Origin: a bacterium
GTDB taxonomy: Bacteria; Patescibacteriota; Minisyncoccia; Phycocordibacterales; Phycocordibacteraceae
Assembly: GCA_023269085.1 (NCBI GenBank)
Contig: JAHFML010000002.1
Coordinates: forward strand, 65,266 to 129,265
Reading direction: 5' to 3'
DNA: 64,000 nt
How positions within the stretch are numbered: position 1 is the stretch's first letter; each line of letters starts with the position of its first letter. Of the stretch, positions 1,681 to 57,209 are shown piece after piece. The translations under genes and the position numbers were made by a program. The notes beneath the pieces are model-generated. The model made no database searches. It was given only the letters and a program-made list of their open reading frames with translations, and was not told where the DNA came from.

Positions 1681-2391
1681 TCACCAAGGTTCGAGGGCTA
1701 CAGATGTTAATGACTCGTCATCGGCGTGATATTCGAGATGGCTGGCAAGCAGATCGCGCGCCTCATCCTTGAATGTTTGTACGTCTGGATAAAGCGCACG
1801 TAAGGGCTCGTGTTCGATAATCGGCGATTCTACAATCGAGAGAAACGCGGGGAGGCTGGAGAATTCATACGTGGTCGCCCAATTCCACGCATCATCAAAT
1901 TGTTCGGACGACCGCTTTAATCCGCCCGGGTATAATTCAAGCACGTTCTTGACCTGAATATAGAACGCGAGGTATCTAAGATGCGCATCTTCGGATACGG
2001 TACGACTTCGGTACGCGCCTTGGAACAGACTCCCACGCTCATCATATTTCGCGTTGAAGTGCGCAGTCATGCTTCCGAACACACGCTGCAGAAATTTCGT
2101 CGTTCCGTCTTCACGTATTTCTTCGATAAGGAGATGCACATGGTTGGGCATGAGTGTCCAAGCAAGAATATGAACAAGCGGTTCAGGTTCCGGCCACCAT
2201 TCCGGCCGGAAGAAATCATCGTGTCCCTCGACACTTTTCTTCCAGTTATCGTCATGAAAAGTGTCGTTCATGTAGAACAACAACTTTTGGAAGCGGCGTT
2301 GATCGGAGGCATCACGCGTGATATCCATACCGCGCACCCCACGCTTGGTCACATGCATAATCGAACCGATCCCATACGGCTCTACTCTCAT
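1681..2391 (-). CDS. IS200/IS605-family Y1 (HuH) transposase, REP-associated tyrosine transposase (RAYT)-like
   Basis: LMPNHVHLLIEE (HuH motif), GSLFQGAYRSR, LRYLAFYI tyrosine helix; flanked on both sides by REP-D palindromes. Confidence 0.75.
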   Translation of the reverse strand: MRVEPYGIGSIMHVTKRGVRGMDITRDASDQRRFQKLLFYMNDTFHDDNWKKSVEGHDDFFRPEWWPEPEPLVHILAWTLMPNHVHLLIEEIREDGTTKFLQRVFGSMTAHFNAKYDERGSLFQGAYRSRTVSEDAHLRYLAFYIQVKNVLELYPGGLKRSSEQFDDAWNWATTYEFSSLPAFLSIVESPIIEHEPLRALYPDVQTFKDEARDLLASHLEYHADDESLTSVALEPW

Positions 2392-8490: not shown

Positions 8491-9150
8491 TTAATCAGGG
8501 GCGTAGGTAAGCCACTCGGTGACGAGCTCTTTAAACTCCATGCCAGAATCGAAATATCCAGGCAAGGCATTGGCGGTGAGGATGATATTCTCGGCACGCG
8601 TCTCGCCGAGATAATCGCGATAGCTTGATGGCGCGTATTGCGCGAGATATCGTTCTGCGGCCGCGCGGTCTCTGATCCCCGTCTCTTTCCATTTCTGTTC
8701 GATAATCTTCACTGGGTTGAGATGAATATACGAAACGAGATAGCGCAAATAACGGTCATCCGCGACATGAGTTGCCTTGAACTTCCCTTGGAAGAGGGAG
8801 CCGTTCCGGTCGTTCTTCTTATTGAAATACATCGTATAACCGGTAGTGAGCTTCTGCATGAACTTGCTGATGCCGCCTTCTTGAAGCTCGCGCACGAGGA
8901 GATGGAAATGGTTTGGCATAAGGCAGTACGCAGCAATCTCGACGAGCGGTTCTCCTTCTCGTTTTCCCACCAACTCGTCCAAGGTTCGACCTTGGAGTTT
9001 TAGAACGACAGGAGTGCTTTGGTTCGCAAAATAGAGAAGAGCAAGGAAGCGACGGTAGTCACTTTTGTCTAAGAAGACTTTCCGTTTCTCGGTGCCGCGA
9101 TTGTAAATGTGGTAGTACTCTTCTGGCGCGAATGCGAATGTTCGTTGCAT
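8491..9150 (-). CDS. IS200/IS605-family Y1 transposase, RAYT-like (second paralog), carrying an in-frame REP-A copy
   Basis: YCLMPNHFHLLVRE HuH motif, GSLFQGKFKAT, LRYLVSYI; REP-A at 8979-8995 lies inside the ORF and encodes ...KLQGRTLDEL... Confidence 0.8.
   Translation of the reverse strand: MQRTFAFAPEEYYHIYNRGTEKRKVFLDKSDYRRFLALLYFANQSTPVVLKLQGRTLDELVGKREGEPLVEIAAYCLMPNHFHLLVRELQEGGISKFMQKLTTGYTMYFNKKNDRNGSLFQGKFKATHVADDRYLRYLVSYIHLNPVKIIEQKWKETGIRDRAAAERYLAQYAPSSYRDYLGETRAENIILTANALPGYFDSGMEFKELVTEWLTYAPD
8979..8995. repeat. REP family A palindrome inside RAYT coding sequence
   Basis: CCAAGGTTCGACCTTGG within ORF 8491..9150, frame preserved. Confidence 0.8.
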
Positions 9151-9191: not shown

Positions 9192-9253
9192 AAAACTTGC
9201 GAGAGGTGTTGATTGCGCGCGACCGAAGGTCGCGCGCATGGTATTTTATACCC

Positions 9254-9790
9254 ATGAGCGTCTCATTCAGTATCCCGCACGAGAATGTCCTGCGGCTCGG
9301 TCTCCACGAGGGCATGAAGGTCGGCGACTTCGGCGCGGGCTCTGGGCATTATGCCCGCGCCGCGGCCGCCATCGTTGGCTCGAGCGGGAAGGTCTATGCG
9401 ATTGATGTGCAAGAGGACATTCTCAAACACCTGAAGCTCAACACGCACGAGCACCACCAACGCACAATCGAAACAGTCTGGGGCGATATCGAGAAGCCGG
9501 GCGGCACTAACCTCCGCCCAGTGCTCCTCGACGCGGCTATCCTCGCGAACACCTTTTTCCAAGTCGAGAATCGGTTTGGCCTCCTCGCGGAGCTGAAGCG
9601 CGTCCTAAAGCCGGGTGGCAAGCTCATGCTCATCGACTGGGCGGGGAGCTATGGCGGCATGGGCCCCGCGCCCGAGCAGGTCGTGAGCGAGCATGAAGCA
9701 GAAAGTTTTTTTATCAGCGGTGGCTTCTATAAGGCCAGCTCCTTCCGCGCCGGACCGCATCATTACGGCATTATCTTCACCGCGCCATAG
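9254..9790 (+). CDS. Class I SAM-dependent methyltransferase
   Basis: Motif I VGDFGAGSGHYA, motif post-I VYAIDV; start moved to ATG 9254 because the upstream ORF part overlaps the REP. Confidence 0.7.
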   Translation: MSVSFSIPHENVLRLGLHEGMKVGDFGAGSGHYARAAAAIVGSSGKVYAIDVQEDILKHLKLNTHEHHQRTIETVWGDIEKPGGTNLRPVLLDAAILANTFFQVENRFGLLAELKRVLKPGGKLMLIDWAGSYGGMGPAPEQVVSEHEAESFFISGGFYKASSFRAGPHHYGIIFTAP

Positions 9791-9791
9791 T

Positions 9792-11099
9792 ATGAAAATC
9801 TCTCTCTTCCAAGGCATCTTGCTCGCGGTCTTCAGCTTCGCGGCGCTTATCGGTATCTTCGTCTTCGCGACGCACACGAGCAATTCTTCAAACACTTCTA
9901 CGGCTGTCGGCACTGTTGTCATCTGGGGCACGCTCCCGAAGGCAGGTCTGCAACAGGCGCTCACGATGCTCGCGCAGACAGACACCACGCTCAGCGGGAT
10001 CTCGTATGTGCAGAAGGATCAAAACGAATTCGCGACGGACCTTGCCGGGGCGATAGCGACTGGCGCCGCACCAGACTTAGTGCTCGCTTCGCAAGAAGAG
10101 TTGCAGTCGCTCACGAAACTTCTCACGCCGATACCTTCAGCGACGCTCTCGGCGGCAACCTTCACCTCGGCATTCATCGGCGAGAGCCGGCTCCTCCAGG
10201 TGCCCGACGGGTCAGGCTACTGGGGCCTCCCGTTCTTGGTTGATCCGCTCGTCCTCTTCTCGAACAGCTCAATCCTCGCGAGCAATGGCATCGCCGCACC
10301 TCCTGCGACATGGGAATCTCTCACGGGGCTCGTGCCAGTCGTAGCGAATCTCACGCCAACCAAGCAGATTACACGCGGTCTCATCGCGCTCGGCACCTAT
10401 GACAATGTCCGCGACGCGCGCGGCATCCTCTCGTCGCTCTTTATGCAAGTCGGTGTGCCGATCTCTACCTATCGCAATGGTGTCTTGGGAGTCGACTTGA
10501 GCGGGAGCCATTCGTCTGGCGTTGGCGCCGGACAGGCCGCGCTCGACTTCTATGCACAATTCGCCGATCCGTCGAAGCTCTCCTACACCTGGAACGCCTC
10601 GTTGCCCGATTCCCAGAAAGCATTTATCGCCGGCAATCTCGCGCTGTATCTCGGCTACGCTTCTGAAGCGCGTTTCCTGCGCGCCGCGAACCCGAACCTC
10701 GACTTCCGCGTGACTGCTCTGCCACAGCCCGCCACTGCCGCCGACAAGAGCACCTACGGGCTCCTCTACGCGCTCATGATCCCGCGCGGCGCGAAGAATG
10801 CATCGGGCGCCTTCGCCGCCGCGTCGCTCTTCACCAATAACGCCGGGCAAGCCGCCTTCGCGAATGCTACCGGCCTCGCGCCCGTCACGATCTCCAGACT
10901 CGCGACGACACCCGACGACCCTGTCGCGGCAGTCGCTGCCGCTGAGGCGTTGTACGCGAAGGGTTGGTTGTCCCCAGCGCCCGCCGATACGGACGCCATC
11001 TTTTCGAGTATGATTACCAGCGTGATCAGCGGCCGTCTCAACACTCTGACCGCGCTTACCACCGGGGCGAGCGCCCTCTCTATCCTCTTACAAAAATAA
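9792..11099 (+). CDS. Membrane-anchored extracellular solute-binding-protein-like protein (SBP family 1-like fold suspected)
   Basis: N-terminal TM ISLFQGILLAVFSFAALIGIFVF followed by ~400 aa Ala/Ser/Thr-rich periplasmic-like domain with MalE-like spacing; start moved to ATG 9792 (ORF track 9693 overlaps MTase). Confidence 0.45.
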   Translation: MKISLFQGILLAVFSFAALIGIFVFATHTSNSSNTSTAVGTVVIWGTLPKAGLQQALTMLAQTDTTLSGISYVQKDQNEFATDLAGAIATGAAPDLVLASQEELQSLTKLLTPIPSATLSAATFTSAFIGESRLLQVPDGSGYWGLPFLVDPLVLFSNSSILASNGIAAPPATWESLTGLVPVVANLTPTKQITRGLIALGTYDNVRDARGILSSLFMQVGVPISTYRNGVLGVDLSGSHSSGVGAGQAALDFYAQFADPSKLSYTWNASLPDSQKAFIAGNLALYLGYASEARFLRAANPNLDFRVTALPQPATAADKSTYGLLYALMIPRGAKNASGAFAAASLFTNNAGQAAFANATGLAPVTISRLATTPDDPVAAVAAAEALYAKGWLSPAPADTDAIFSSMITSVISGRLNTLTALTTGASALSILLQK

Positions 11100-11100
11100 T

Positions 11101-11526
11101 ATGCGTACTTTCATCATCGCTTCGCTCGCCGTTCTACTTTTAGAAGTTGCTATCCCTATGGGAGTCTTCGCCGCGACTGCGGGTGTAAATGATCCGACTT
11201 CTAGTGGTGGAAGTGGAAGTGCGGGAACAAATGTTGCCCCAACCAGCAACTCCGCCGTCCAGCTCGTGAATCCGCTCAAGGGCGGCGCAACGCTCTCATC
11301 GTTCTTGAGCGATATCTTAAAGTTCGTCATCCAGATCGGCACCATCGCTATCATCCTCATGCTCGTCTTCGTCGGGTATACGTTCGTCGCCGCACAGGGC
11401 GCTCCCGCGAAGATCGAAGAGGCGAAGAAGATGCTTCTCTGGACCATCATTGGCGCGCTCGTCCTTCTCGGCGCACAGGCTATCTCCGCGGCTATACAAG
11501 CAACGGTGGGCGCACTTGGCGGCTGA
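11101..11526 (+). CDS. VirB2/TrbC-type pilin-like protein (T4SS pilin family, paralog 1)
   Basis: Signal peptide ...GVFA/A, then TM1 IGTIAIILMLVFVGYTFVAAQGAP, charged loop AKIEEAKKM, TM2 LLWTIIGALVLLGAQAI; architecture of VirB2/TrbC-like pilins. Confidence 0.6.
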   Translation: MRTFIIASLAVLLLEVAIPMGVFAATAGVNDPTSSGGSGSAGTNVAPTSNSAVQLVNPLKGGATLSSFLSDILKFVIQIGTIAIILMLVFVGYTFVAAQGAPAKIEEAKKMLLWTIIGALVLLGAQAISAAIQATVGALGG

Positions 11527-11527
11527 T

Positions 11528-11797
11528 ATGACTTTCGCCCAATTCGTCGGAGATGGTTCGACCGGTGTTATAGGCATCTTCAATACGGTCGTCATCCCGC
11601 TCCTCTTCTCGCTCGTATTCCTCGTCTTCGTATGGGGCGTCGTGTCCTACTTCTTCATCCATGGCGACGAAGAGACGAAGCGCGGCGAAGGGCGCAAGTT
11701 CATGCTCTGGGGCGTTATCGGCGTCGCGGTGCTCCTCTCGACATGGGGCTTCGTCAATCTTATCCTGGCTACTCTCGGTCTCGCGCCTGGCGCGTAA
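11528..11797 (+). CDS. VirB2/TrbC-type pilin-like protein (paralog 2)
   Basis: VIPLLFSLVFLVFVWGVVSYFFIHGDEETKRGEGRKFMLWGVIGVAVLLSTWGFVNL; TGAtATG coupling to upstream gene; start at ATG 11528. Confidence 0.6.
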   Translation: MTFAQFVGDGSTGVIGIFNTVVIPLLFSLVFLVFVWGVVSYFFIHGDEETKRGEGRKFMLWGVIGVAVLLSTWGFVNLILATLGLAPGA

Positions 11798-11815
11798 TGC
11801 TATACTGAAAGTTAT

Positions 11816-12247
11816 ATGACACCTACTCTTCTCGCTCAAGCAACCAATGTCCCCGGACCGTATGTCCAGTCGGTTAATAGTCAAGTGAATTACGGCATTA
11901 GTAACGGCGTTGGGAGCTATGGAAGCGGTATCGGTTATATTCCAAATATAGGCTCCTACGGGAGCGGCATCACCGGTATCGCAGGGACTATCCTCTATCT
12001 CATCAACTCAGTGCTCGTACCGCTCATCTTCGCGGTCTCATTTATCGTATTCCTCTATGGCGTGGCGAGCACCTACATCTTCTCTCACGGCGAGCCGGCA
12101 GAGGTAGAGAAGGGGCATAAGGTTATCCTCTGGGGTCTCATCGGCTTCGTCGCGATGGTCTCGCTCTGGGGCTTGGTCAATGTCGTGGCGAATACCTTCG
12201 GCTTGAACGGCATGATCTCCCCCGGGCGTTTGCCGACATCTTATTAG
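11816..12247 (+). CDS. VirB2/TrbC-type pilin-like protein (paralog 3, Gly/Ser/Tyr-rich N-terminal region)
   Basis: LVPLIFAVSFIVFLYGVASTYIFSHGEPAEVEKGHKVILWGLIGFVAMVSLWGLVNVV. Confidence 0.6.
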   Translation: MTPTLLAQATNVPGPYVQSVNSQVNYGISNGVGSYGSGIGYIPNIGSYGSGITGIAGTILYLINSVLVPLIFAVSFIVFLYGVASTYIFSHGEPAEVEKGHKVILWGLIGFVAMVSLWGLVNVVANTFGLNGMISPGRLPTSY

Positions 12248-12264
12248 CATAATCAATTCTCCCT

Positions 12265-12567
12265 ATGCCCGGCTCCGTCAATGTCTCACTCGTCCAAGGA
12301 TACTCGAACAGCATCCTCACGGTCATCAATCAGAGTCTCGTGCCGGTGCTCTTCGCCATCGCCTTCATCATGTTCCTCTGGGGCGTGTACAAATATTTCA
12401 TCATCGGCGCGACTGAAGATAAGAAGCGCGAAGAAGGGAGACATTTCGTCCTTTGGAGCATCATCGGCTTCGCGGTTATTCTCTCGGTATGGGGACTCGT
12501 CGCCGTCGTGACGAGCACATTCAACTTGCCTGCCGGCGCTACGCCTCCTAGTTACCCGAAGCTCTAA
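12265..12567 (+). CDS. VirB2/TrbC-type pilin-like protein (paralog 4)
   Basis: LVPVLFAIAFIMFLWGVYKYFIIGATEDKKREEGRHFVLWSIIGFAVILSVWGLVAVV. Confidence 0.6.
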   Translation: MPGSVNVSLVQGYSNSILTVINQSLVPVLFAIAFIMFLWGVYKYFIIGATEDKKREEGRHFVLWSIIGFAVILSVWGLVAVVTSTFNLPAGATPPSYPKL

Positions 12568-12655
12568 CTATCCACCTATCCACACCCCTTCGCGAAGTGC
12601 GTTGACCCGGTGCTATGAAAAGGTACAATAACCTCATTACTCGTTCATCTATCTT

Positions 12656-13036
12656 ATGAAAAAAGCTCTTGCCATCACATCCGTCTCGCTTGCCACTCTC
12701 GCTCTACCGATTGTCTCTTCTGCCGCCACAACGATCACCGACCTGAACGGTGTCGGTAACTTCATCATCAATACTATCAATGGTCTTATCGTTCCTGTCC
12801 TCTTCGCGATTGCCTTCATCGTCTTCGTCTATGGCGCCTTCGAGACCTTCATCATCGGCGCGAACAAGGAGGAGGTGAAGGATAAAGGGAAAAACCTCAT
12901 GCTCTGGGGCCTCATCGGCTTCTTCGTCATGGTCTCGGTCTGGGGCCTCGTGAACATCCTCACGAGCACGGTCAGCTTCGGCAACAACGGCGGTATCAGC
13001 AATCCGCCCAAGGCCGGCGTGAATATCGGCAACTAA
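12656..13036 (+). CDS. VirB2/TrbC-type pilin-like protein (paralog 5, with cleavable signal peptide)
   Basis: Signal peptide MKKALAITSVSLATLALPIVSSAA; IVPVLFAIAFIVFVYGAFETFIIGANKEEVKDKGKNLMLWGLIGFFVMVSVWGLVNIL. Confidence 0.6.
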   Translation: MKKALAITSVSLATLALPIVSSAATTITDLNGVGNFIINTINGLIVPVLFAIAFIVFVYGAFETFIIGANKEEVKDKGKNLMLWGLIGFFVMVSVWGLVNILTSTVSFGNNGGISNPPKAGVNIGN

Positions 13037-13043
13037 CACAAGG

Positions 13044-13316
13044 ATGGCCGCTCTTAGCAAGTTCCTCGGCCTAGTCGTCGTGCAGATAATCAATCCGATT
13101 ATCCTCTTGCTCGCGGGCGCGGCGTTCGTCCTCTTCGTCTGGGGCGGCTTCCAATTCGTCCTCCATGCGGGCGACGACACGAAGCGGGCAGAGGGACGGC
13201 AAGCTATCCTCTGGGGCCTCGTCGGGCTCGTGATTATCTTCGGCGCCTATAGCATCATCAATCTCGCTCTGGGCGCGTTCAACATAGCGCCAATTCATAA
13301 GATATCGGGTTCATAA
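13044..13316 (+). CDS. VirB2/TrbC-type pilin-like protein (paralog 6, shortest)
   Basis: ILLLAGAAFVLFVWGGFQFVLHAGDDTKRAEGRQAILWGLVGLVIIFGAYSIINL. Confidence 0.55.
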   Translation: MAALSKFLGLVVVQIINPIILLLAGAAFVLFVWGGFQFVLHAGDDTKRAEGRQAILWGLVGLVIIFGAYSIINLALGAFNIAPIHKISGS

Positions 13317-13334
13317 AGCAAGAATAGAAAAAAG

Positions 13335-13360
13335 CCGCGACTTGCGTCGCGGCCTTTGTG
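13335..13360. terminator. Bidirectional rho-independent terminator (GCCGCGAC-ttgc-GTCGCGGC flanked by A-run on one side, T-run on the other)
   Basis: aaaaaaGCCGCGACttgcGTCGCGGCctttgt; closes the pilin array (+) and gene 13371..14036 (-). Confidence 0.75.
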
Positions 13361-13370
13361 CCGAATGATG

Positions 13371-14036
13371 CTACTCCGGTAAGATGCCTGTTGTCGGACA
13401 TGAGCTCATAAAGCGATAGCTCAATCTAGCAATGTCTTTTTTTGCTTTGAACTGCCAGAAAGTGCCACTGCCATTGGACCAGCGCTTGAACTCAACCCCC
13501 TCATCGGGGGTGAAGCACAGTTGTTTGCCGTAGGAGCTGGGTCCGGCCGTTGCGCCAGAGAGTGCGCGTGTCCATGTGGTGTTGATAAGACAATGTTTCG
13601 TCTCATCACCACGCGGATCAGCACAGGTCACGTCAGGGGCTGAACCGTTGACAACCAGAGTCGATACCGGTCCGGCTACCCAGATCGCGATCACGAGGAT
13701 CGCCACCCAGGAGAACGCGGTCTCTGTCTTGGCCTTCGCGAAGTGCACGAGGGCCCAGATGATGAGACCAGCCGAGACGATCACGACAGCCCAATTTTCC
13801 CGGGCCAACGTGCTCGTCTGAGTTACGGTCGGGTTGGTGCTGTAGAGCCACCAGAGGATTGCGACACCGGCGATGACACCAACCCATGTCCAGAACACCT
13901 TCTTCTTATCCGAAGGCCCCTGTATCTGGGTTGCCATACCGCCGACCGCGACGGCAATCTTCTTAGCGTGCTCCCAATACACGATGAGCAGAAGGCCGGC
14001 CATGACAAGCAATGCGCCGATTATTTTTCCGGTCAT
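13371..14036 (-). CDS. Hypothetical polytopic membrane protein (4 TM) with Cys-containing C-terminal extracytoplasmic domain
   Basis: Four hydrophobic helices then ...DVTCADPRGDETKHCLINTTW...QLCFTPDEG...; ATGA overlap with upstream SPFH gene. Confidence 0.5.
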   Translation of the reverse strand: MTGKIIGALLVMAGLLLIVYWEHAKKIAVAVGGMATQIQGPSDKKKVFWTWVGVIAGVAILWWLYSTNPTVTQTSTLARENWAVVIVSAGLIIWALVHFAKAKTETAFSWVAILVIAIWVAGPVSTLVVNGSAPDVTCADPRGDETKHCLINTTWTRALSGATAGPSSYGKQLCFTPDEGVEFKRWSNGSGTFWQFKAKKDIARLSYRFMSSCPTTGILPE

Positions 14037-15124
14037 GATTTATCTCCTTTGGGTTGCAATACGGTTTGAGCGGCTTTCACCACCCCCATGAGGTCTGTCA
14101 TACCACCTCCAGCACCGACAACGACCGTGTTGGCGTTGATGAGCGATTTGGCAGTCTCAGAAGCGAGAACGGCCTCACCGCTAACGCCGAGAGCGTCGAG
14201 CATCTTCTTGCGTCCCTCGGCTTCAGCCATAAGCTTAGCCCGGGTTGCCGAAGCGACACCTTCGCCAGCCTTGATAGCCTTGGTCTTGTCTGCTTCGGCG
14301 GTGATCACCTCTTGTTCTGCGGTTGCCCGCGCGACAGGGATACCAGCAAGGGCATTACTGACCGCAAGAGAAACATCAGGAGAAATAAGACGAACCGACT
14401 CGATCGTGATGCCAAGATGGTTAAGACGATCTCGCATTTTCTTACGAAGAGCATCGTTAGTCTCGGGGAGTTTCTTGATGAAGCCTGCCGGAGTAGTGCC
14501 GGACGCAACCTCGGCGATAATAATCTCGCCGATGTCGCGGACCTGCTTCTCGACCTGCTTTTCGTCCCCGAAGTTCGCCACGAAGTTGAATATGTCGGTG
14601 ATGGCATATTGAACGACGAAGCTCACGATGAGGGTCATCTGTGCATCAAGAATGCCAGTCTCTCCCTTTGTAGGGTCGGGGTCGGGTGCGCGTGTTACGA
14701 CACGAATCGGCCGCACCATGTCCTTGTCGGTGAGCGGTTCGTTGTCGTGTCCGCGGAAGACCTTTTCAGGTTCGCCCGGGCACTGGAACTCCTGTACCAG
14801 TCGTGATTTCGATTTGATTTGCATCAGACCGAACGGCAGGAAGTGAGGACCAGAACCGAGCTTGCTGAGAGCTCTGCCATAACAATACGCACCAGCAATT
14901 GCATCTGCCGAAGCGGTCTTGAATGACAGGATGCTGTAGAAGAGCGCGAGCTCAAAGAAGGTCAAACCACCGTTGAACTCGATCTCGCCGAACTTGAGCG
15001 ACCGGTTTTGGGTAATCCACGCGAGGATAAGCAACGCGCCGATAATCGCAATCCCGGCAAACAACAACTTCTTGTACAACTCATGATCTCCCAACACAGG
15101 TGCTGGACCTTGGTTTTCAGCCAT
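14033..15124 (-). CDS. SPFH/band-7 (flotillin/YqiK-like) membrane protein
   Basis: N-terminal TM, SPFH core with Ala/Glu-rich coiled region ...AEADKTKAIKAGEGVASATRAKLMAEAEGRKKML... Confidence 0.7.
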   Translation of the reverse strand: MAENQGPAPVLGDHELYKKLLFAGIAIIGALLILAWITQNRSLKFGEIEFNGGLTFFELALFYSILSFKTASADAIAGAYCYGRALSKLGSGPHFLPFGLMQIKSKSRLVQEFQCPGEPEKVFRGHDNEPLTDKDMVRPIRVVTRAPDPDPTKGETGILDAQMTLIVSFVVQYAITDIFNFVANFGDEKQVEKQVRDIGEIIIAEVASGTTPAGFIKKLPETNDALRKKMRDRLNHLGITIESVRLISPDVSLAVSNALAGIPVARATAEQEVITAEADKTKAIKAGEGVASATRAKLMAEAEGRKKMLDALGVSGEAVLASETAKSLINANTVVVGAGGGMTDLMGVVKAAQTVLQPKGDKS

Positions 15125-15217
15125 GATGTTCTCCTAGAACAATTGAATTTCGGAGTAGCGGAAAGAGCTACTTTCTGATGTGGATAATACACGAAACGGA
15201 TATAAAGTCAAGTGCGG

Positions 15218-15299
15218 TGCTGGGGAGAGGACTTGAACCTCCATGGGTTGCCCCGCGAGCTCCTAAGGCTCGTGCGTCTACCAATTTCGCCACCCCAGC
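15218..15299 (-). tRNA. tRNA-Leu (anticodon TAG), class II with long variable arm
   Basis: Manual fold: acceptor GCTGGGG/CCCCAGC, D-arm GGCGAAATTGGTAGACGC, anticodon loop CUUAGGA, variable arm CGGGGCAACCCATG, T-arm GAGGTTCAAGTCCTC. Confidence 0.85.
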
Positions 15300-15363
15300 A
15301 GGTGTGCATCAAGGCACTTCCACAGAATACTATGTTCTGCTATATTTTGCTTACGCGCCAGAT

Positions 15364-15436
15364 GCGCCCATAGCTCAGTTGGTAGAGCAGCTCCCTCTTA
15401 AGGAGACGGTCCAAGGTTCGAATCCTTGTGGGCGCA
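15364..15436 (+). tRNA. tRNA-Lys (anticodon CTT)
   Basis: Acceptor GCGCCCA/TGGGCGC, D-arm GCTCAGTTGGTAGAGC, anticodon loop CUCUUAA, T-arm CAAGGTTCGAATCCTTG. Confidence 0.85.
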
Positions 15437-15448
15437 CAAAAGTTTTAG

Positions 15449-15536
15449 TGCCGAGGGCGGGAATCGAACCCGCACGAGCCTATTAGAGCTCACGACATTT
15501 TAAGTGTCGAGTGTCTACCAATTTCACCACCTCGGC
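15449..15536 (-). tRNA. tRNA-Leu (anticodon TAA), class II
   Basis: Acceptor GCCGAGG/CCTCGGC, anticodon stem-loop CGACA-CUUAAAA-UGUCG, long variable arm, T-arm GGGTTCGATTCCCGC. Confidence 0.85.
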
Positions 15537-16026
15537 GCACACCCTTATTTCTACCACGATGTGTAGGCTTCAGGCTATGGCAATTTGGGCAGAGAATGCG
15601 AAGATTCTCGAGTCGGTTATCTGAATGATCCCCATTGATATGATCGATCTCTATGGGAACACGTCCATCCTCACTCTGTTCTGCCCAGCCACACTCCTCA
15701 CATTTTGGTTTTTTCAGACCAGCCTTGAATAGCCGCTTCTTTAGTTGATGAATTGAGAAGTGACTATTTGAAATGAGGATTTCTTCAAGCGTGAGAGAAG
15801 GTTTCTTCAGAACGTTCTTGCCCTTACTCCAGCCTTTCCCCAAGAAATGATTAGTGTCGATGCCGTATTCTTCGGCGTATTTTTCGAAGTAACGATAATT
15901 TCCTCCTGCACCGCGCAAATTCATTTTTCCCAGAGCCTCTCGCACACTTTGAGATGAAGCAATTGTCTTTCGCAAGGAGGCTTCTTCCCAGTGGTTCTTG
16001 ATGGCTCTCATGCACACAGTATACAC
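15490..16026 (-). CDS. HNH endonuclease (homing-endonuclease-like); 3' end overlaps tRNA-Leu(TAA)
   Basis: HNH motif EIDHINGDHSDNRLENLRILCPNCH; C-terminal ~15 codons run into the tRNA gene on the same strand, so the true C-terminus is uncertain. Confidence 0.55.
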   Translation of the reverse strand: MYTVCMRAIKNHWEEASLRKTIASSQSVREALGKMNLRGAGGNYRYFEKYAEEYGIDTNHFLGKGWSKGKNVLKKPSLTLEEILISNSHFSIHQLKKRLFKAGLKKPKCEECGWAEQSEDGRVPIEIDHINGDHSDNRLENLRILCPNCHSLKPTHRGRNKGVRRGGEIGRHSTLKMS

Positions 16027-23598: not shown

Positions 23599-24630
23599 AT
23601 GCATCGTCGTCTAGCTCTTCTCGCGCTCCTGCTTCTTGTGGGCTCTTTTGCTTTGCCGCACCTCGTGTACGCGGAAACGATACCGTTCTTCGGGCCAATT
23701 ATTCCCGATGCAAACAACCAATGCGCCGCCGGCTGGGGTATGCTTATCGTCGTCATAAACAACATTATCGAATTTGGGCTCACGATATTCATTATCTTCG
23801 TCATGCCGATTATGATTGCGTATTCCGGTTTTCTTTTCGTATGGAATCCGGTCAACTCGGGCGGGATCGCACAGGCGAAGAGCATCCTCACGAACTCTAT
23901 CGTCGGCCTCGTCATCGCGCTCGCGGCGTGGATGGTCGTCGACGCAGTCATGGCGGCACTCTACAACCCGAACGCGACGAGTACGACCAAAAATTGGGTC
24001 GACCTCATCACGCTCGGCGGCGCGCCGGACTGCATTATCCAGACTAGTGCACTCAATTCACTCGATCAGTCGAATCTGCAAGGAGGATCTGAAGTGACGG
24101 GCGTGAGTGCCGATGGCGGGAAGTTCCTCACCCTCCCGACGAACGGCGCGTGCACGGCTGATAATCTCAAGACTGCGGCACAGCAGGCGAACGTCTCTCT
24201 GACCCAAGCGCAGGCCGAAACGCTCTCCTGTCTCGCCGTGGCCGAGAGCACGTGCGGCACCAACACGAGTGTCGCAAGGCAGGCTAACGGCAAGCCAACA
24301 ACGGCAAATGGCATGTTCCAGATTATTCTCGGTCTTAATGACACCTGTCATAATCTAAACATTCCCGCATGCACGGCCGCGGCGCAAGCGGCGGGATACA
24401 AAAGCATAACCGGCAATCTCAACTGCTCGACAGCGTTCAGCGATGGTCTACCAAAAGCGAACATGCCGAATCTCGCCGCGGCATGCAAAGTGGCAGCAGC
24501 AGATCTCCCCTGCAATACTGCCGCCGCCGCATGTCTCATAAAAACAGGCGGTGGCAGTTATGGTGCGTGGACAGCCGATCCGCGAAGTGCAACACAGAAA
24601 AACTGCGTCACACGATATGCCGGAAAATAA
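23599..24630 (+). CDS. Fusion protein: VirB2/TrbC-type pilin-like N-terminus + C-terminal lytic transglycosylase (SLT/VirB1-like) domain, Cys-rich
   Basis: Signal peptide, two hydrophobic segments (GMLIVVINNIIEFGLTIFIIFVMPIMIAY; ILTNSIVGLVIALAAWMVVDAV), then SLT signature ...AVAESTCGTN...GKPTTANGMFQI... (E-S...G[LM][MF]Q) and ~14 Cys. Confidence 0.55.
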   Translation: MHRRLALLALLLLVGSFALPHLVYAETIPFFGPIIPDANNQCAAGWGMLIVVINNIIEFGLTIFIIFVMPIMIAYSGFLFVWNPVNSGGIAQAKSILTNSIVGLVIALAAWMVVDAVMAALYNPNATSTTKNWVDLITLGGAPDCIIQTSALNSLDQSNLQGGSEVTGVSADGGKFLTLPTNGACTADNLKTAAQQANVSLTQAQAETLSCLAVAESTCGTNTSVARQANGKPTTANGMFQIILGLNDTCHNLNIPACTAAAQAAGYKSITGNLNCSTAFSDGLPKANMPNLAAACKVAAADLPCNTAAAACLIKTGGGSYGAWTADPRSATQKNCVTRYAGK

Positions 24631-39576: not shown

Positions 39577-40271
39577 ACGGCGACTCATTCCGTATCGCGC
39601 TCGCGGGAGTCGCGCTCGTCGTCGCGGCGGGCGGCGTGTATCTCAAATATGAAGACATGAAGCCCTGCGTGCATCCGCTGCCCTACGCTATCGGGGCGGT
39701 CGATGCGCGCTTTGACACGACCGCGGCGACAGTCGAGCGAGAAGCCCTCGCTGCCGCGACAATCTGGAACACGGCAGAGGGGAAGCCACTCCTCGCCTAT
39801 GACACTCACGCCGCGCTCAAGATCAATCTCATCTACGACGAACGCGAGGCGAGCGCCAAGCAGGGAGAAGACATCGCGCGCGCTCAAGCCGCGCTCGAGA
39901 GCGAGCGAGCGATGATAGAGGCAGAGCGCACAGCAGGCAATGTGTCCCCGAACACCTTCAACGCGCAGGTCGCGAGCTATAACGCGAGCATCGCCTCGCT
40001 GAACGCGCGCGTGAGCGACTACAACAAGAGCGCCGGTCACGACTTCAAAGAAGGCGAGTATATCCAAGACGCGTCGGGCAAGCGCATCAACGTCTACGAA
40101 TTCATCGGCACCAATCAGCTCGAACGCGTCCTCGCGCACGAGCTCGGTCACGCCCTCGGCCTCGATCACAACAGCGACCCCGCCTCGATCATGTACGCCG
40201 AGAACGAGAGCGGCAACCTCGTCCCCACTACTGCCGACCTCGCCGCGCTCCGCGCCCTCTGCGGGTCGTAA
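39573..40271 (+). CDS. Membrane-anchored zinc metalloprotease, matrixin (M10)-like
   Basis: HELGHALGLDHNSDPASIMY = HExxHxxGxxH + Met-turn; N-terminal TM; ATGA overlap with dnaX. Confidence 0.7.
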   Translation: MNGDSFRIALAGVALVVAAGGVYLKYEDMKPCVHPLPYAIGAVDARFDTTAATVEREALAAATIWNTAEGKPLLAYDTHAALKINLIYDEREASAKQGEDIARAQAALESERAMIEAERTAGNVSPNTFNAQVASYNASIASLNARVSDYNKSAGHDFKEGEYIQDASGKRINVYEFIGTNQLERVLAHELGHALGLDHNSDPASIMYAENESGNLVPTTADLAALRALCGS

Positions 40272-40339
40272 TCTGGAGATATCAACATACGAACAAATAG
40301 ATGTAGGCTATAGATTTCATGTCGTGCTAGTATAGTTTT

Positions 40340-41041
40340 GTGTTAGCTTTACCGAAAGAAAAAGCGCGTGCCGTACAGCTTCGCAAACAAGGTAAAACCT
40401 ATGGAGAAATTGCAAAGCAAATTCTGGTTTCTAAATCAACGCTTTCTCTTTGGTTGCGAGATGTTGAAGTGTCAGCAGAGTTTCTCTCTCGTATCCGACA
40501 AAAGAAATTAGATGCGGTCAAGAAGGGTTGGGAGGCGCGCAGGAAGGAGCGTATCGATCGAACGAAGCAGATTACTGATGCGGCACGAGAAGAAGTCTCG
40601 AAATTTTATAAACAGCCACTCTGGCTCGTTGGCGTAACTCTTTACTGGGCTGAAGGACATAAAGAAAAATCTTGGCGTCCGGGGGCACTCGTGACTTTCA
40701 CCAACATGGACGAAAATACGATAATTATCTTCAGAAATTGGTGTCGTAAATATATGGATGTCTCGGACGGTGATTTTGTTTACAGCCTCTATGTTCATGC
40801 TACTCACGAAATGCGGACGTTAGAAATAAAACAATGGTGGGCACGCAAACTCTCAATAAACCCTGATAGCATCGCCGTTTATTACAAGAAACATACAACA
40901 AAACACGTGCGTCATAATGACGACGATAACTATCATGGGGTTTGTCGTGTTCGTGTGAGGAAGAGTGTGGATATGAATCGGAGAATTGCTAGTTGGACAT
41001 CCGAAATGGTACGTTCACTGGAGGACAAAAATAAGCTATGA
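40340..41041 (+). CDS. Hypothetical HTH-domain protein (low-GC islet; possible homing-endonuclease-like)
   Basis: N-terminal HTH (TYGEIAKQILVSKSTLSLWLRD); ...LWLVGVTLYWAEGHK... faintly LAGLIDADG-like; clearly lower GC. Confidence 0.4.
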   Translation: MLALPKEKARAVQLRKQGKTYGEIAKQILVSKSTLSLWLRDVEVSAEFLSRIRQKKLDAVKKGWEARRKERIDRTKQITDAAREEVSKFYKQPLWLVGVTLYWAEGHKEKSWRPGALVTFTNMDENTIIIFRNWCRKYMDVSDGDFVYSLYVHATHEMRTLEIKQWWARKLSINPDSIAVYYKKHTTKHVRHNDDDNYHGVCRVRVRKSVDMNRRIASWTSEMVRSLEDKNKL

Positions 41042-41063
41042 TAGAGCCACTCGTGCTCACCGC

Positions 41064-41134
41064 TGGGGGATCGTCTAATGGTAGGACGACGGGTTTTGGT
41101 CCCGTTAATTTAGGTCCGAGTCCTAATCCCCCAG
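41064..41134 (+). tRNA. tRNA-Gln-like (anticodon TTG), atypical
   Basis: Manual fold: acceptor TGGGGGA/TCCCCCA with G73 (U1:A72/G73 as in E. coli tRNA-Gln), 3-bp D-stem, anticodon loop UUUUGGU, T-arm TTAGG-TCCGAGT-CCTAA; an alternative 8-9 bp acceptor register exists. Confidence 0.55.
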
Positions 41135-41260
41135 CAGTGTGCAGGAGACTCTAGGATCGTTCCCTAGCTCCCCAGCAAAGTCGTGCGAGGTTATCTCGCA
41201 CAAGACGCGTCAAATGGATGAGTTACTCAGAATATTGATATATGAGTTAGAATAAGCCCA

Positions 41261-42229
41261 ATGGAACAATTTTCTCATGCGCAAAAAGAATCTGGAATAA
41301 ACCGAGTTGTCGGATTCGATGCAGGACAGGAGAAAAAATTCTTACAGTATTTCAAAGATAAGTTTGAAACCAGATCTCCTGATTCAGGAGATAAAGAAAA
41401 AACATCCGAACAAGTGGCGCTGATTGACCGCACCAATAAGGAGATGCGAGATTTCTTGGCACGGTACAATATCAATGCCGTTGAGATCCCGGCGGATAAT
41501 GTTCATATACTCGATCGGTCGAAACTTACGCAAGAAGAACTTCGAGAGATTCAAAAAAGATTTGGCACTGAGAGTGGATTCTACTCAGCCTTTAAGCAAG
41601 GCGTCGCGATTATGAAAGATTACGATGTAAGCAAATTGTCGTTTCTGCAAACTCTTGTCCACGAGTCGCTCCATCTTCAGGGATTTTATTCGTATCAAAA
41701 GAGTTCTCGAGAGACTGCCGATTTTAGCGTGAAAAACGAAGATAACTCGGCAAGTTTGAACATCCGACGATCAGGATTCTCTATCGGCACAAAAGATGGT
41801 AAAAGACGGCTCTTCCATGAGATTAATGAATCTATTATCACGGAGCTACAAATTCGATTCGAGAACGCATACCTCGCGCAGTGGCCAGAGCTGAAAGAAG
41901 AATTAAAAGCTCGCGATGCCTGTATCGAACGAGTCGCAAAACGAGACAACGCACCAATAGAAGAAATACGGAAGGTTGTAGCGAGTTTCTCTGGATACGC
42001 ATGGGTAACCTATCCCTATAACGACGAGCGCCAGGAGTTTAATTCTCTGGTCGATGAGTTGTATACGAGAAACCAATCAGATTTTGAATCGCGAGAAGAT
42101 GTCTTTAATTTATTTGTTGAAGCAACAATGAATGGTCGTCTTCTCCCTGTCGCACGACTCATTGAGAAGACATTCGGTAAGGGAACATTTAGGACAATTG
42201 GTGTGAACAGTGCGAATAAGCACGACTAG
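41261..42229 (+). CDS. Hypothetical protein (low-GC islet; contains HESLH motif)
   Basis: ORF 322 aa; LVHESLHLQG could be an HExxH zinc site but no further support. Confidence 0.4.
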   Translation: MEQFSHAQKESGINRVVGFDAGQEKKFLQYFKDKFETRSPDSGDKEKTSEQVALIDRTNKEMRDFLARYNINAVEIPADNVHILDRSKLTQEELREIQKRFGTESGFYSAFKQGVAIMKDYDVSKLSFLQTLVHESLHLQGFYSYQKSSRETADFSVKNEDNSASLNIRRSGFSIGTKDGKRRLFHEINESIITELQIRFENAYLAQWPELKEELKARDACIERVAKRDNAPIEEIRKVVASFSGYAWVTYPYNDERQEFNSLVDELYTRNQSDFESREDVFNLFVEATMNGRLLPVARLIEKTFGKGTFRTIGVNSANKHD

Positions 42230-48266: not shown

Positions 48267-48313
48267 ATATTCGATACTTGTGCGCTTCGCGAGTGTGCTA
48301 TCATACGGCGCAT

Positions 48314-49042
48314 ATGGAAAATAATAATGAAATGAGCAACAAGTTCTTCTTGCCGGGTGCGGTCGTGGTCGCGGGGCTCCTTATCGCCGGAGCGGTGGTC
48401 TGGAGCAACGCGCATCCGACGGCGGCGACTTCTGGCGGTCAGCCCGCCGCGCCGAAGGTGAATATCAAAGATATCAAGATGGACGGCGACCCATTCATCG
48501 GCAAGGCTGATGCGCCGGTCACCATCGCCTTCTGGAGCGACTTCCAGTGTCCGTACTGCAAGGCGGCAGAGGTTGGCGGCGTCCCGCAGATCAATCTCGC
48601 GGCCGCATTCCCCGATGTCGTGAAGAATTATGTCGACACTGGCAAGGCGAAGGTCGTCTTCATGGACTTCATCTTCCTCGGTAACGACTCCATCGCGGCA
48701 GGCCTCTACAATCGCGCCGTGTGGAAGCTCTATCCGGATCAGTACTTCGCATGGCGCACCGCGATGTACACCGCACAAGACGAGGAGGGCGATAAGGGCT
48801 TCGGTAATGCCGCCTCGATCGACAAGCTCGACGCTACGATCGCTGGTCTTGATGCCGCGAAGATCGCAGAGGACGTGAAGGCGAACACGACCGTCTACCA
48901 GGCCATGCTCGACGCCGACAAGGCCGAAGCCTCGAAGCTCGGCATCAATGCGACGCCATCGTTCGTCATCGGCACCAAGCTTCTCCAAGGCGCATATCCC
49001 TTTGACGCTTTCAAGGCGGCGATTGATCCGCTCCTGAAGTAG
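48314..49042 (+). CDS. DsbA-family thiol:disulfide oxidoreductase (membrane-anchored)
   Basis: Thioredoxin-fold active site FQCPYCK; N-terminal TM; start moved to ATG 48314 (ORF track TTG 48278). Confidence 0.75.
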   Translation: MENNNEMSNKFFLPGAVVVAGLLIAGAVVWSNAHPTAATSGGQPAAPKVNIKDIKMDGDPFIGKADAPVTIAFWSDFQCPYCKAAEVGGVPQINLAAAFPDVVKNYVDTGKAKVVFMDFIFLGNDSIAAGLYNRAVWKLYPDQYFAWRTAMYTAQDEEGDKGFGNAASIDKLDATIAGLDAAKIAEDVKANTTVYQAMLDADKAEASKLGINATPSFVIGTKLLQGAYPFDAFKAAIDPLLK

Positions 49043-55328: not shown

Positions 55329-55331
55329 AAT

Positions 55332-57209
55332 ATGCCTGAAAAACCGCCAAGAACAAAGACGCCAATCGAAGAAACGATTGCACAAGTTGAAGAAGAGAAC
55401 GAAGTTATGTTTCCTCCGGCAGAAGGCGTACCGACACGGGCAGAGAGTCAAGCGGCGCTTATCGAAGCTGTGAATAAATTCCCGAAGGCAGAAGTGTCGA
55501 CGGAAACGGCCACACCGAAAGTGGAGAAGCCAGAGAGCGTGTTCGACACCGAGCGCATGAAGGAGTACATGAGTCAGCGCAATGGCGCACTGGATCAGAA
55601 AGCAGAGAAGCTCGGGATCGGAGGATTCGTGCGCTCGATCGGAGAGAAATACAATAAAATAAATTGGAAATATAAGCTCCTCGCGGGTATCGGTCTTGGC
55701 GTTACAACCGCGGTAACGGCATTCCCTGCGGCTATTACCGCGTGTGCCGTCGGACTTATAGCCGCGCAACGCGCTCTTGGTGCGACGGGCATGTTCGTAA
55801 AGTTTGAGAAGAATCTTAAGGATATCGACAAAGGGGAAGCAGAAGGATTCTTCAAAGGCCGTCTGCTCGGAAAAGAAGGTTGGTATCAAAAGGCGATTAA
55901 AAATATGGAGTTGTCAGAAGAAGGGCAGCGCAACATGGCTATTGGCATGACGCTTGCCTATACTGTTGGCATGAGTGCTGCGATTGGCGGGGCGGTCGAG
56001 TACGCACGAGATCACGGTTGGGTAGAGTGGATCAGCAATCATTTGCCGTCAATGGATGCTCACGCTGCCGGAACGTCTGCGGCTCCGGCTACCGCACCAG
56101 CACCAGAGGCCGCCACACCGGCACCAGAAGCGGCAGTATCAGCACCAGAAGTGAAAGTCGAGATGCCGAGTGTCGCGGCGTCGGCAAGACACGGATATGA
56201 GTACATGATGAAGCGGATGTGGGAGGACTTGCATGACCCCGCGAAGCACTTTGTCGCGCCGAAGGACATCAATCCTGACAGTGATCTCGCCAAGCTTCTC
56301 GCCGCGAAGCCAGAAGAGATAGACGGCCTCGTGCACCGAATTGCGGCAGACTCGCACCATCACTTCTTCCACGCGAACGGCGAGAATGTCCTCATTGATC
56401 CGAAGGCGCATATGACGTTCGGTGATCATGGAGAGTTGCATCTCGCGACCGAGAAGTATGACTACACCTTCGCGCCTGACCATGCACCGACGACGCCCGC
56501 GTATCATCCTCATGTTGCCGCCGCACCGGCACCAGAGAATGTACAGTCGGTCGTCTTCACTCACGAGACGCCGCCACCGACGACCTATGAAGAGGCGTAT
56601 AACAACGCAATCGATAATGCACCGCATCTACCCCACGTGTCAGCCGAGCAGGTGCAAGGGTCGGCGTCTGCCTACGACCCCAAAGCTCCCGATGCGTGGA
56701 TGCACATCAATGATCCCGGCAAAGGCATGGACCCGTTCCGGGTAGAAGACTATCCAGCGAATCATGTGCCCGGAGCCGGCGCGCATCCGGTCGAGGTTGC
56801 GCATGCACCCACGCCGCATCTCTCAGAACATATTGCTGTGAACGGCTCGGGCGTCGAGATCAATATCAGTGAGCCGCATATCTACGCGAGCCACGCGGCT
56901 GGAAGTGTTGCTCCTGTTCCGGGTCAAGGCATTGATGTGATGAACATGCCGACAGCACAACCAGAGCGTCTCTTCGTCTACGGCGGTGATCCGGCAGGGC
57001 GCGCCGAGACGATTGCTCAATATCTCTCACAGCATCACGACAAGATTGTATACGCGGCAGACTCTAATAACGAGCACCGCATTCCTTGGCATTGGGCCGA
57101 TGGAAAAGTCGTGCCAGGGACGCCGGTGCGCACGAGCGGCTTCCTCGGTTTCTTCGCATCCTTTATGAAGGCACCAACTCCTGACGAACTCGGGAAACTT
57201 ATAAAATAA
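55332..57209 (+). CDS. Hypothetical large membrane protein (2-3 TM, long Ala/Pro/His-rich C-terminal domain)
   Basis: TM helices around ...LLAGIGLGVTTAVTAFPAAITACAVGLIAA... and ...MAIGMTLAYTVGMSAAIGGAV...; no known domain. Confidence 0.5.
   Translation: MPEKPPRTKTPIEETIAQVEEENEVMFPPAEGVPTRAESQAALIEAVNKFPKAEVSTETATPKVEKPESVFDTERMKEYMSQRNGALDQKAEKLGIGGFVRSIGEKYNKINWKYKLLAGIGLGVTTAVTAFPAAITACAVGLIAAQRALGATGMFVKFEKNLKDIDKGEAEGFFKGRLLGKEGWYQKAIKNMELSEEGQRNMAIGMTLAYTVGMSAAIGGAVEYARDHGWVEWISNHLPSMDAHAAGTSAAPATAPAPEAATPAPEAAVSAPEVKVEMPSVAASARHGYEYMMKRMWEDLHDPAKHFVAPKDINPDSDLAKLLAAKPEEIDGLVHRIAADSHHHFFHANGENVLIDPKAHMTFGDHGELHLATEKYDYTFAPDHAPTTPAYHPHVAAAPAPENVQSVVFTHETPPPTTYEEAYNNAIDNAPHLPHVSAEQVQGSASAYDPKAPDAWMHINDPGKGMDPFRVEDYPANHVPGAGAHPVEVAHAPTPHLSEHIAVNGSGVEINISEPHIYASHAAGSVAPVPGQGIDVMNMPTAQPERLFVYGGDPAGRAETIAQYLSQHHDKIVYAADSNNEHRIPWHWADGKVVPGTPVRTSGFLGFFASFMKAPTPDELGKLIK

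Follow-up and report, generated by a model that had tools for sequence, protein, structure and literature searches.

Six tandem PF18895 pilin-like genes kept in fixed order on the chromosome of a Kaiserbacteria-like Patescibacterium

Background

A large part of bacterial diversity belongs to the Patescibacteria, which grow attached to other microbes. In the single genetically tractable species, Candidatus Southlakia epibionticum, a type IV secretion system (T4SS)-like system and an array of six pilin genes have been found essential for the epibiotic lifestyle (Wang et al. 2023; PMC10633639). The six genes, SEML1_0014-0019, belong to the Pfam family PF18895 and were scored as essential by transposon sequencing (Tn-seq; PMC10633639; review PMC12857230). 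In the excerpts of the supplement, genes of this run are annotated PF18895, and the rows of SEML1_0014, 0017, 0018 and 0019 read GD/ES/ES, that is, growth-defective and then essential (PMC10633639). When 3,035 genomes were searched with the PF18895 and PF04956 models, VirB2-like pilins turned up in 1,948 assemblies; virB4 was close by in 1,135 of these, and in about 40% of assemblies the pilins were not near it. The survey delimited 441 pilin arrays of 2-11 genes in 383 assemblies (paralogue identity 25% on average, at most 54%), and in many Patescibacteria PF18895 arrays formed part of a virB4 cluster or lay close to one (PMC12102498). Here we describe such an array, pil1 to pil6, at 11101-13316 of a 64,000-nucleotide stretch of contig JAHFML010000002.1 (hereafter the window, to which all positions refer).

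A sequence-only reading of the window, made without database searches, had described these genes as six VirB2/TrbC-type pilin-like paralogues whose N-terminal differences might reflect antigenic or functional diversification of a surface filament. Its observation is confirmed by the results presented here, and its interpretation is partly supported. Its statement that multi-copy pilin arrays are typical of the Candidate Phyla Radiation (Patescibacteria) agrees with the published survey (PMC12102498), and the accompanying remark that they are largely uncharacterised is now half true, since catalogues of arrays exist and one array has proved essential.

Results

The six co-oriented small open reading frames (ORFs) were recovered at the positions first proposed (Table 1), and orthologues of each in at least 50 other species indicate that they are real genes rather than chance ORFs. 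Scored separately, all six proteins passed the gathering score of PF18895 (T4SS_pilin; 26.6 bits), with 28.3-40.2 bits and E-values of 2e-6 to 4e-10, and the precomputed Pfam annotation of the array genes (survey locus L001, the same sequence) agrees with this assignment. Where two or more tandem PF18895 genes in a Patescibacteria genome are taken as an array, this locus holds six. The NCBIfam model NF045849 ('pilin-like conjugal transfer protein'), an 80-residue hairpin profile with a cut-off of 40 bits, aligned end to end with all six proteins, pil4 exceeding the cut-off (42.7 bits) and pil6 (33.2), pil5 (31.9), pil3 (29.5), pil2 (21.4) and pil1 (15.8) falling below it. The paralogues are divergent, pil1 sharing 24-29% identity with the other five, and the only residues invariant across pil1-pil6 besides the start methionine are the L, W and G of an 'LW..G' motif. 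The longer core motif quoted in the sequence-only reading is a good fit to pil2-pil5, a partial one to pil6 and a poor one to pil1.

In a hydropathy scan each of the six proteins showed two segments of strong hydrophobicity with a loop of about 10 charged residues between them, and an AlphaFold2 model of pil4 gave a two-helix hairpin (residues 7-47 and 52-85; predicted local distance difference test score, pLDDT, 78), bearing out the two-transmembrane (TM) pilin topology anticipated from the letters alone. Lysine and arginine residues number 2-4 in the loop, 0-1 in the C-terminal tail and 0-1 in the N-region (2 in pil1). The two signal peptides announced earlier are those of pil1 and pil5, as judged by hydrophobicity and by conservation in orthologues, that of pil5 being conserved in homologues P0103-P0120; a signal peptidase I gene (lepB) lies in the window at 393-989. 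In pil1 the signal peptide is followed by a variable Gly/Ser/Thr/Pro-rich stretch, a conserved 'LVNPLKGG..L..FL..IL.F' segment and the two-TM hairpin. Its orthologues share a conserved 'MRTF...' signal peptide, which supports the gene start at 11101; the automatic gene call had chosen 11158 instead. The Gly/Ser/Tyr-rich N-terminus is likewise real and belongs to pil3, which has no charged residue in its first 55 or so amino acids and is without the signal peptide carried by most position-3 orthologues. Such an uncharged 55-residue tail would be compatible with tail translocation.

The gaps from pil1 to pil6 measure 1, 18, 17, 88 and 7 nt, and the TGAtATG coupling that had been attributed to the array in general is confined to the pil1/pil2 junction. 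The 88-nt gap contains a candidate promoter (Table 1), which may, as a weak suggestion from consensus matching (4 matches in the region for 2.3 expected), serve pil5 and pil6; this would be consistent with the occurrence of pil5-pil6 as a separate pair in other genomes. As for the bidirectional terminator proposed to close the array, folding bears out the hairpin at 13330-13357 (-18 and -23 kcal/mol for the two strands), but a canonical U-tract, as in an intrinsic terminator, is found on the minus strand only, that is, for the convergent gene, while the plus strand continues as CUUUGU, a weak U-tract.

To compare the array across species, one genome per species was scanned, which gave 80 loci encoding a pil5 relative; the six-frame ORFs of these loci were searched with a hidden Markov model (HMM) of the paralogues, and array positions were assigned by best BLAST hit to the six window proteins. 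Pilin arrays were present at all 80 loci, with the exact order 1-2-3-4-5-6 at 50 of them, the remainder being mostly five- or seven-member variants or arrays cut by contig ends. Among 51 full-order genomes, every protein (306/306) found its best non-self match at its own array position in a different species. Median same-position identities for positions 1 to 6 were 54, 63, 62, 51, 72 and 69%, as against 25-47% between positions, and paralogues within one genome were no more alike than proteins at different positions in different species. At the DNA level, the array copies resembled each other by no more than 60-78%, in stretches not exceeding 100 nt. On the identity pattern and this low DNA similarity, recent duplication or gene conversion was rejected, and no inversion or recombination sites were found at the array. 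Position-wise orthology implies that the duplications are older than these species, with neither turnover nor concerted evolution, which is the opposite of what a variation system would be expected to leave. The array is thus an orthologous cassette, and the pattern speaks more for a set of fixed, non-redundant subunits in one assembly than for antigenic variants that could replace one another.

Fused forms of these proteins were also found. Two-domain PF18895 fusions form more than 100 clusters and make up most of the top database matches to the paralogue profile (184-251 aa); an AlphaFold2 model of one shows two hairpins connected by a disordered linker of about 30 residues. In two otherwise collinear arrays of sister lineages (L084 and L089) a fused pilin occupies position 3, giving five genes with six domains, and a third array (L090) has six genes with seven domains. 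The second domain of the fused pilins is consistently closest to pil4. Fusion leaves the proposed orientation of both halves, ends out and loop in, unchanged and ties the two domains to 1:1 co-expression, and it constitutes Rosetta-stone evidence that neighbouring paralogues act together. As a separate observation, the fused pilins P0001-P0112 carry near-invariant cysteines, both N-terminally and in the linker between the domains, a pattern suggestive of extracellular disulfides; cysteine is absent from the six pilins of the window, which encodes a DsbA-like thioredoxin (48278-49042).

Sequence variation is distributed unevenly along the proteins. Taking the first ATG in the open frame as the start of each orthologue, a crude rule that makes length statistics and N-region identities approximate, the N-regions at positions 1, 3 and 4 are 13-16% identical between species, as against 56-69% in their own cores (13 vs 58% for pil1, 16 vs 69% for pil3), and vary greatly in length. 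Over all positions the orthologous hairpin cores are 56-82% identical, position 2 having 63% and position 5, the most conserved member, 82%. The variable N-regions are often Gly/Ser/Thr-rich or Cys-rich, positions 2, 5 and 6 are compact and conserved, and position 4 is dimorphic, some species having a short form that lacks a signal peptide, as in pil4, and others a longer one that carries both a signal peptide and a Cys-rich insert (orthologue signal peptides were judged by eye on aligned N-termini). Real hypervariability of the N-terminal regions is seen between species at these three positions, rather than in a set of exchangeable paralogues as the sequence-only reading suggested.

The relation to VirB2/TrbC was examined separately. 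The gathering threshold of PF04956 (TrbC/VirB2; 27.9 bits) was not reached by any of the six proteins, the best being pil6 (12.1 bits, E 0.24). Alignment of the six-paralogue profile by hhalign with one built from four bona fide VirB2/TrbC proteins encoded on Ti-type and related plasmids (Agrobacterium VirB2 included, a VirB2 sequence having been checked at 99% identity) gave a probability of 0.3%, which, both profiles being shallow, is absence of evidence only. Fold searches returned only generic helical hairpins, and a profile search of PDB sequences gave chance matches only (MsbA and a designed protein). As indirect links, among position-2 orthologues that of L089 has an unmarked PF04956 TrbC match and that of L090 a faint one, and two Southlakia pilins also match PF04956 in the supplement excerpts (PMC10633639). 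The passing of NF045849 by pil4 links the PF18895 family to monoderm (MPF-FATA-type) transfer systems. The sequence-only reading is supported as to the T4SS_pilin family, and no direct homology to canonical VirB2 was detected that would bear out its VirB2/TrbC-type label; we regard the array genes as PF18895 members that probably work like VirB2, and do not file them as demonstrated VirB2 homologues.

The window encodes gyrA, infB, clpB, topA, relA/spoT, serS, pyk, gdh, uvrB, parB, dnaX, dprA, tgt, lepB and pth together with seven tRNAs, a housekeeping content that identifies it as chromosomal, and the nearest pilin relatives come from metagenome-assembled genomes labelled Kaiserbacteria, Paceibacterota, Minisyncoccia or Patescibacteria. 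The organism is a Kaiserbacteria-like Patescibacterium and the array is chromosomal; a mobile-element origin was ruled out by the housekeeping synteny. Upstream, the genes of a methyltransferase and of a membrane-anchored solute-binding protein (SBP) are each followed by a 1-nt spacer (stop 9790/start 9792 and stop 11099/start 11101), so that methyltransferase, SBP, pil1 and pil2 form a tightly coupled string. The methyltransferase is syntenic with the array in 67 of the 80 loci; the SBP lies directly 5' of it in 71, within 600 nt of the first pilin core in 70, the other nine loci being truncated by contig ends or of a different locus type. From the 1-nt spacing, or the ATGA overlap between SBP and pil1 in L082 and L083, it can be argued that the SBP is co-expressed with pil1. 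In more distant Paceibacteria an SBP was identified upstream by Pfam in L084 and L090, and in L089 its position is taken by a 431-aa gene with no Pfam match recorded. The full block comprises S1, Lactamase_B, gyrA, methyltransferase, SBP, pil1-6, a small membrane protein and Band_7 on the opposite strand, rbfA and infB, and it is kept in close relatives and in more distant Paceibacteria, including a Nomurabacteria contig. Since the whole block is syntenic, adjacency alone is no proof of a functional tie between SBP and pilins. No ABC permease or ATPase was matched among the window ORFs scanned.

No Pfam or NCBIfam match to VirB4, VirB3/PrgI or VirB6/TrbL was obtained in the window, in a search that covered every ORF of at least 500 aa and most smaller ones. 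The array therefore lies at least 11 kb on one side and 50 kb on the other from any T4SS core gene, and not, within the window, in or near a virB4/virB3/virB6 cluster of the Southlakia type. The sole T4SS-related gene of the window encodes a 918-aa VirD4/TraD-like ATPase (52572-55328, plus strand; TraG-D_C and DUF87, with weak TraD/CD1115 NCBIfam matches), a type that according to the literature is frequent in Patescibacteria and mostly unlinked to virB4. Three small proteins, secreted or membrane-bound and matching no family, precede it, with no VirB4 nearby, and it is followed (52572-57209 region) by a 625-aa membrane protein that has Pro/Ala-rich regions and no family match, a DUF5663 protein and an FKBP isomerase.

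Several further observations concern the surroundings of the array and its relatives. In four species (L056:7989-15200; L042, L053 and L054) a pil5-pil6-like pair stands alone, in the layout holB, fmt (minus strand), pil5, pil6, atpB-atpE-atpF-atpH-atpA-atpG-atpD; the pair is directly 5' of the F-type ATP synthase operon, in the usual place of atpI, and neither an SBP nor pil1-4 was found within 8 kb. A further locus, L081, shares the upstream synteny. When the rest of the window was searched with the six-paralogue HMM, there was a single weak match at 23.6 kb (E 6.5e-4), to the hairpin of a 343-aa protein (23599-24630, plus strand) that has a signal peptide before its two TM segments and a Cys-rich C-terminal part with a sub-threshold PF18896 SLT_3 lysozyme-like match (19.9 vs 27 bits); the protein could join a pilin-like anchor to a VirB1-like cell-wall hydrolase.

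Upstream of the string, the very stable hairpin at 9214-9238 may, on its predicted structure, be the operon's boundary, terminator-like or resembling a repetitive extragenic palindromic (REP) element. It lies between the methyltransferase gene and an IS200-like Y1 transposase gene (8491-9150, minus strand); another such gene occupies 1681-2391 (minus strand), both being possibly REP-associated tyrosine transposases (RAYT-type), and L090 has a Y1_Tnp gene in the equivalent place. Convergent to the array, at 13371-15124 (minus strand), a 221-aa multi-TM protein without family match overlaps by 4 nt a Band_7/SPFH protein, and a pair of a small membrane protein and Band_7 is also found 3' of the array in L084, L089 and L090. 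Beyond it, a tRNA-Leu, tRNA-Lys, tRNA-Leu cluster (15216-16026 with the following ORF) has the 3' part of its second tRNA-Leu (15448-15536) overlapped by an HNH endonuclease ORF (15490-16026, minus strand); HNH genes also occur in the variable region 3' of the array in L021 and L083. Finally, a low-GC patch at 40001-42000 (46% vs about 58% elsewhere), with a helix-turn-helix/transposase-like ORF (40340-41041), a tRNA-Gln (41064-41135) and a 322-aa ORF without family match, may be a small island.

Table 1. Positions of the array genes and of associated features in the window
Feature	Coordinates	Strand	Description
pil1	11101-11526	+	141 aa; divergent PF18895 member, 31.7 bits; TM scan
pil2	11528-11797	+	89 aa from the ATG after TGAt; compact PF18895 hairpin, 31.6 bits; no signal peptide
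pil3	11816-12247	+	143 aa; PF18895 hairpin, 28.3 bits; Gly/Ser/Tyr-rich N-terminal extension of ~55 aa
pil4	12265-12567	+	100 aa; PF18895, 39.7 bits; short form of the dimorphic position
pil5	12656-13036	+	126 aa; PF18895 hairpin, 36.9 bits; conserved signal peptide (MKKALA...VSSA/A)
pil6	13044-13316	+	90 aa; compact PF18895 hairpin, 40.2 bits; final gene of the array
Candidate sigma-70-like promoter	12602-12629	+	TTGACC-16-TACAAT, 10/12; consensus scan; within the pil4-pil5 gap
GC-rich hairpin	13330-13357		Between the array and the convergent gene 13371-14036 (-); terminator scan and fold
SBP homologue, membrane-anchored	9792-11099	+	435 aa; N-terminal TM anchor and SBP_bac_8 (PF13416, E 3e-21)
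Class I S-adenosylmethionine-dependent methyltransferase	9254-9790	+	178 aa; Pfam Methyltransf_11/25/31; first gene of the tight string
GC-rich hairpin	9214-9238	+	11 bp with T-rich tail; terminator scan; fold -22.3 kcal/mol, z = -3.3; just 5' of the methyltransferase gene

Discussion

On the basis of the gene structure, family, topology, fixed-order orthology, synteny and fusions observed directly, we believe, with a probability of roughly 0.55, that the conserved operon makes six non-redundant hairpins which co-assemble into one T4SS-dependent surface or envelope structure, with N-termini contacting the host. The operon would run from the methyltransferase through the membrane-anchored SBP to the six PF18895 paralogues, and each hairpin would insert in the cytoplasmic membrane so that its two termini face outwards and its Lys/Arg-rich loop faces the cytoplasm. 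Signal peptidase I would cut the signal peptides of pil1 and pil5, and the remaining four proteins would translocate an uncharged N-tail. The six, as ancient and non-interchangeable subunit types, would then co-assemble into a pilus-like heteropolymer or a conduit, driven by a VirB4-type T4SS (monoderm, resembling the FATA class of mating-pair formation systems) presumably encoded elsewhere in the genome, none being detected in the window. The structure would be built from the conserved hairpin cores, and the N-terminal extensions of pil1, pil3 and pil4, which differ from species to species, would lie exposed and serve the epibiont in touching its host cell.

Several points weigh against this proposal. 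The window is without T4SS core genes, and the distances from the array to any such gene are those given above. Array size is not universal, since versions with five and seven domains and isolated pil5-pil6 pairs exist. No filament of PF18895 proteins has been seen in any Patescibacterium, and the same 2025 review, which calls the six Southlakia pilins remarkable, still considers a pilus only possible (PMC12857230). Moreover, essentiality scored by Tn-seq within an operon can be a polar effect.

A clearly less probable explanation is that the six hairpins, with their 12 TM helices, remain membrane-embedded and form a hetero-oligomeric ring or channel that works with the co-transcribed SBP, for instance in the uptake of host molecules, independently of VirB4 or loosely connected with it. 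The coupling of the SBP gene to pil1, which extends to distant Paceibacteria, the failure to match an ABC permease or ATPase among the scanned window ORFs and the lack of T4SS core genes in the window would all suit it. So would the generic hairpin fold, which resembles the ATP-synthase c subunit, and the position of the pil5-pil6 pair directly 5' of atpB in four species. One Southlakia pilin bears the structure-based annotation 'F1F0 ATP synthase subunit C' in the supplement excerpts (PMC10633639). Against it, the gyrA to infB block is syntenic as a whole in the clade, which makes adjacency weak evidence, Saccharimonadia carry the same family inside a T4SS cluster, and the long hypervariable extracellular N-termini suit an exposed structure more than a buried channel. 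We also know of no precedent for a transporter made of hairpins and an SBP.

A more specific version, which we consider unlikely, would apply to Paceibacteria: the six hairpins and the co-translated SBP may form a fixed-composition heteromeric uptake apparatus (12 TM helices plus binding protein), or a heteropolymeric filament tipped or fed by the SBP, uncoupled in genetic and perhaps also in mechanistic terms from a VirB4 machine. If true, it would be a new envelope device derived from conjugative pilins and taking up a host-derived compound, and the pil5-pil6 pair 5' of the ATP-synthase operon would hint at a second membrane role for the hairpins.

It is similarly improbable that the paralogues are alternative major pilins whose differential expression yields antigenic or host-range variation, in the way suggested for Bartonella and Anaplasma with their virB2 paralogues. 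That analogy was raised for pilin arrays in PMC12102498, and it draws on paralogues just 24-47% identical with differing N-terminal regions and on the possible internal promoter before pil5. Yet each paralogue is an orthologous lineage in the same order in at least 50 species, without turnover or gene conversion and with no inversion or recombination sites found, the tight co-directional spacing implies co-transcription, and the fused two-domain versions force 1:1 co-expression. In Southlakia, too, the array is essential, with each of the four gene rows in the supplement excerpts scored so (PMC10633639). The antigenic diversification of paralogues advanced in the sequence-only reading is thus contradicted by the fixed-order orthology, the absence of gene conversion and the two-domain fusions.

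Lastly, the idea that the array encodes small membrane peptides of some unrelated kind (precursors of bacteriocins or their immunity proteins, holins, prophage remnants), which their small size and two TM helices might suggest, is effectively refuted, as none of the six proteins matched a bacteriocin or holin Pfam family or, in a PHROGs scan, a phage family, none has a double-glycine leader, no C39 peptidase/ABC exporter or lysin neighbours were found among the flanking genes scanned, and in about 80 species a syntenic block of housekeeping genes surrounds the array.

Arrays of this kind were published between 2023 and 2025, and the window adds an example, not a new category. The present analysis contributes the orthology by position, the fused forms, the gyrA/SBP context and the finding that T4SS core genes lie apart from the array; PMC12102498 makes no mention of that context, of position-wise orthology or of the fused forms seen here in Paceibacteria. 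That the Paceibacteria array is stable, position-wise orthologous and sometimes fused points to a heteromeric assembly over antigenic variants, and the coupling of the SBP provides a concrete lead for the proposed uptake from the host. The match to a Mycoplasma element protein (NF045849) bears on whether the pilins arrived with a monoderm-type T4SS or were co-opted separately.

Among the closest known systems is the Southlakia ML1 array (Saccharimonadia; PMC10633639), also of six tandem divergent PF18895 genes with predicted hairpins and some signal peptides, of about 125-140 aa each there and 89-143 aa here. The Southlakia array lies inside a T4SS cluster beside VirB6-like, PrgI and VirB4-like genes and is experimentally essential, whereas that of the window has no T4SS core gene within 64 kb, is near gyrA and is coupled to an SBP gene. 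The arrays catalogued by Quinonero-Coronel et al. in 2025 (PMC12102498) share the Pfam family, the tandem layout and a similar divergence (24-47% identity in the window). With the Mycoplasma proteins of NF045849, Mbov_0395/MMCAP2_0565, the likeness reaches the model's cut-off in pil4 and stays below it in the other five. These proteins are components of a mobile, integrative and conjugative element, unlike the chromosomal six-gene array, around which no hallmarks of such elements were found in the window. Canonical VirB2/TrbC/TraA pilins resemble the array proteins in small size, in the two-helix hairpin and in the signal peptide of some members, and in the structures of the F and T pili the pilin termini are outside and the basic loop is inside, facing the pilus lumen. 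The array differs from them in scoring below the PF04956 cut-off, in lacking adjacent virB3/virB4, in having six paralogues instead of one major pilin and in belonging to a monoderm organism. Finally, the tandem virB2 paralogues of Bartonella and Anaplasma are likewise several divergent pilin genes in a host-dependent bacterium; while those are thought to serve antigenic variation, the orthology and the fusions of the array described here point to fixed, co-assembling subunits.

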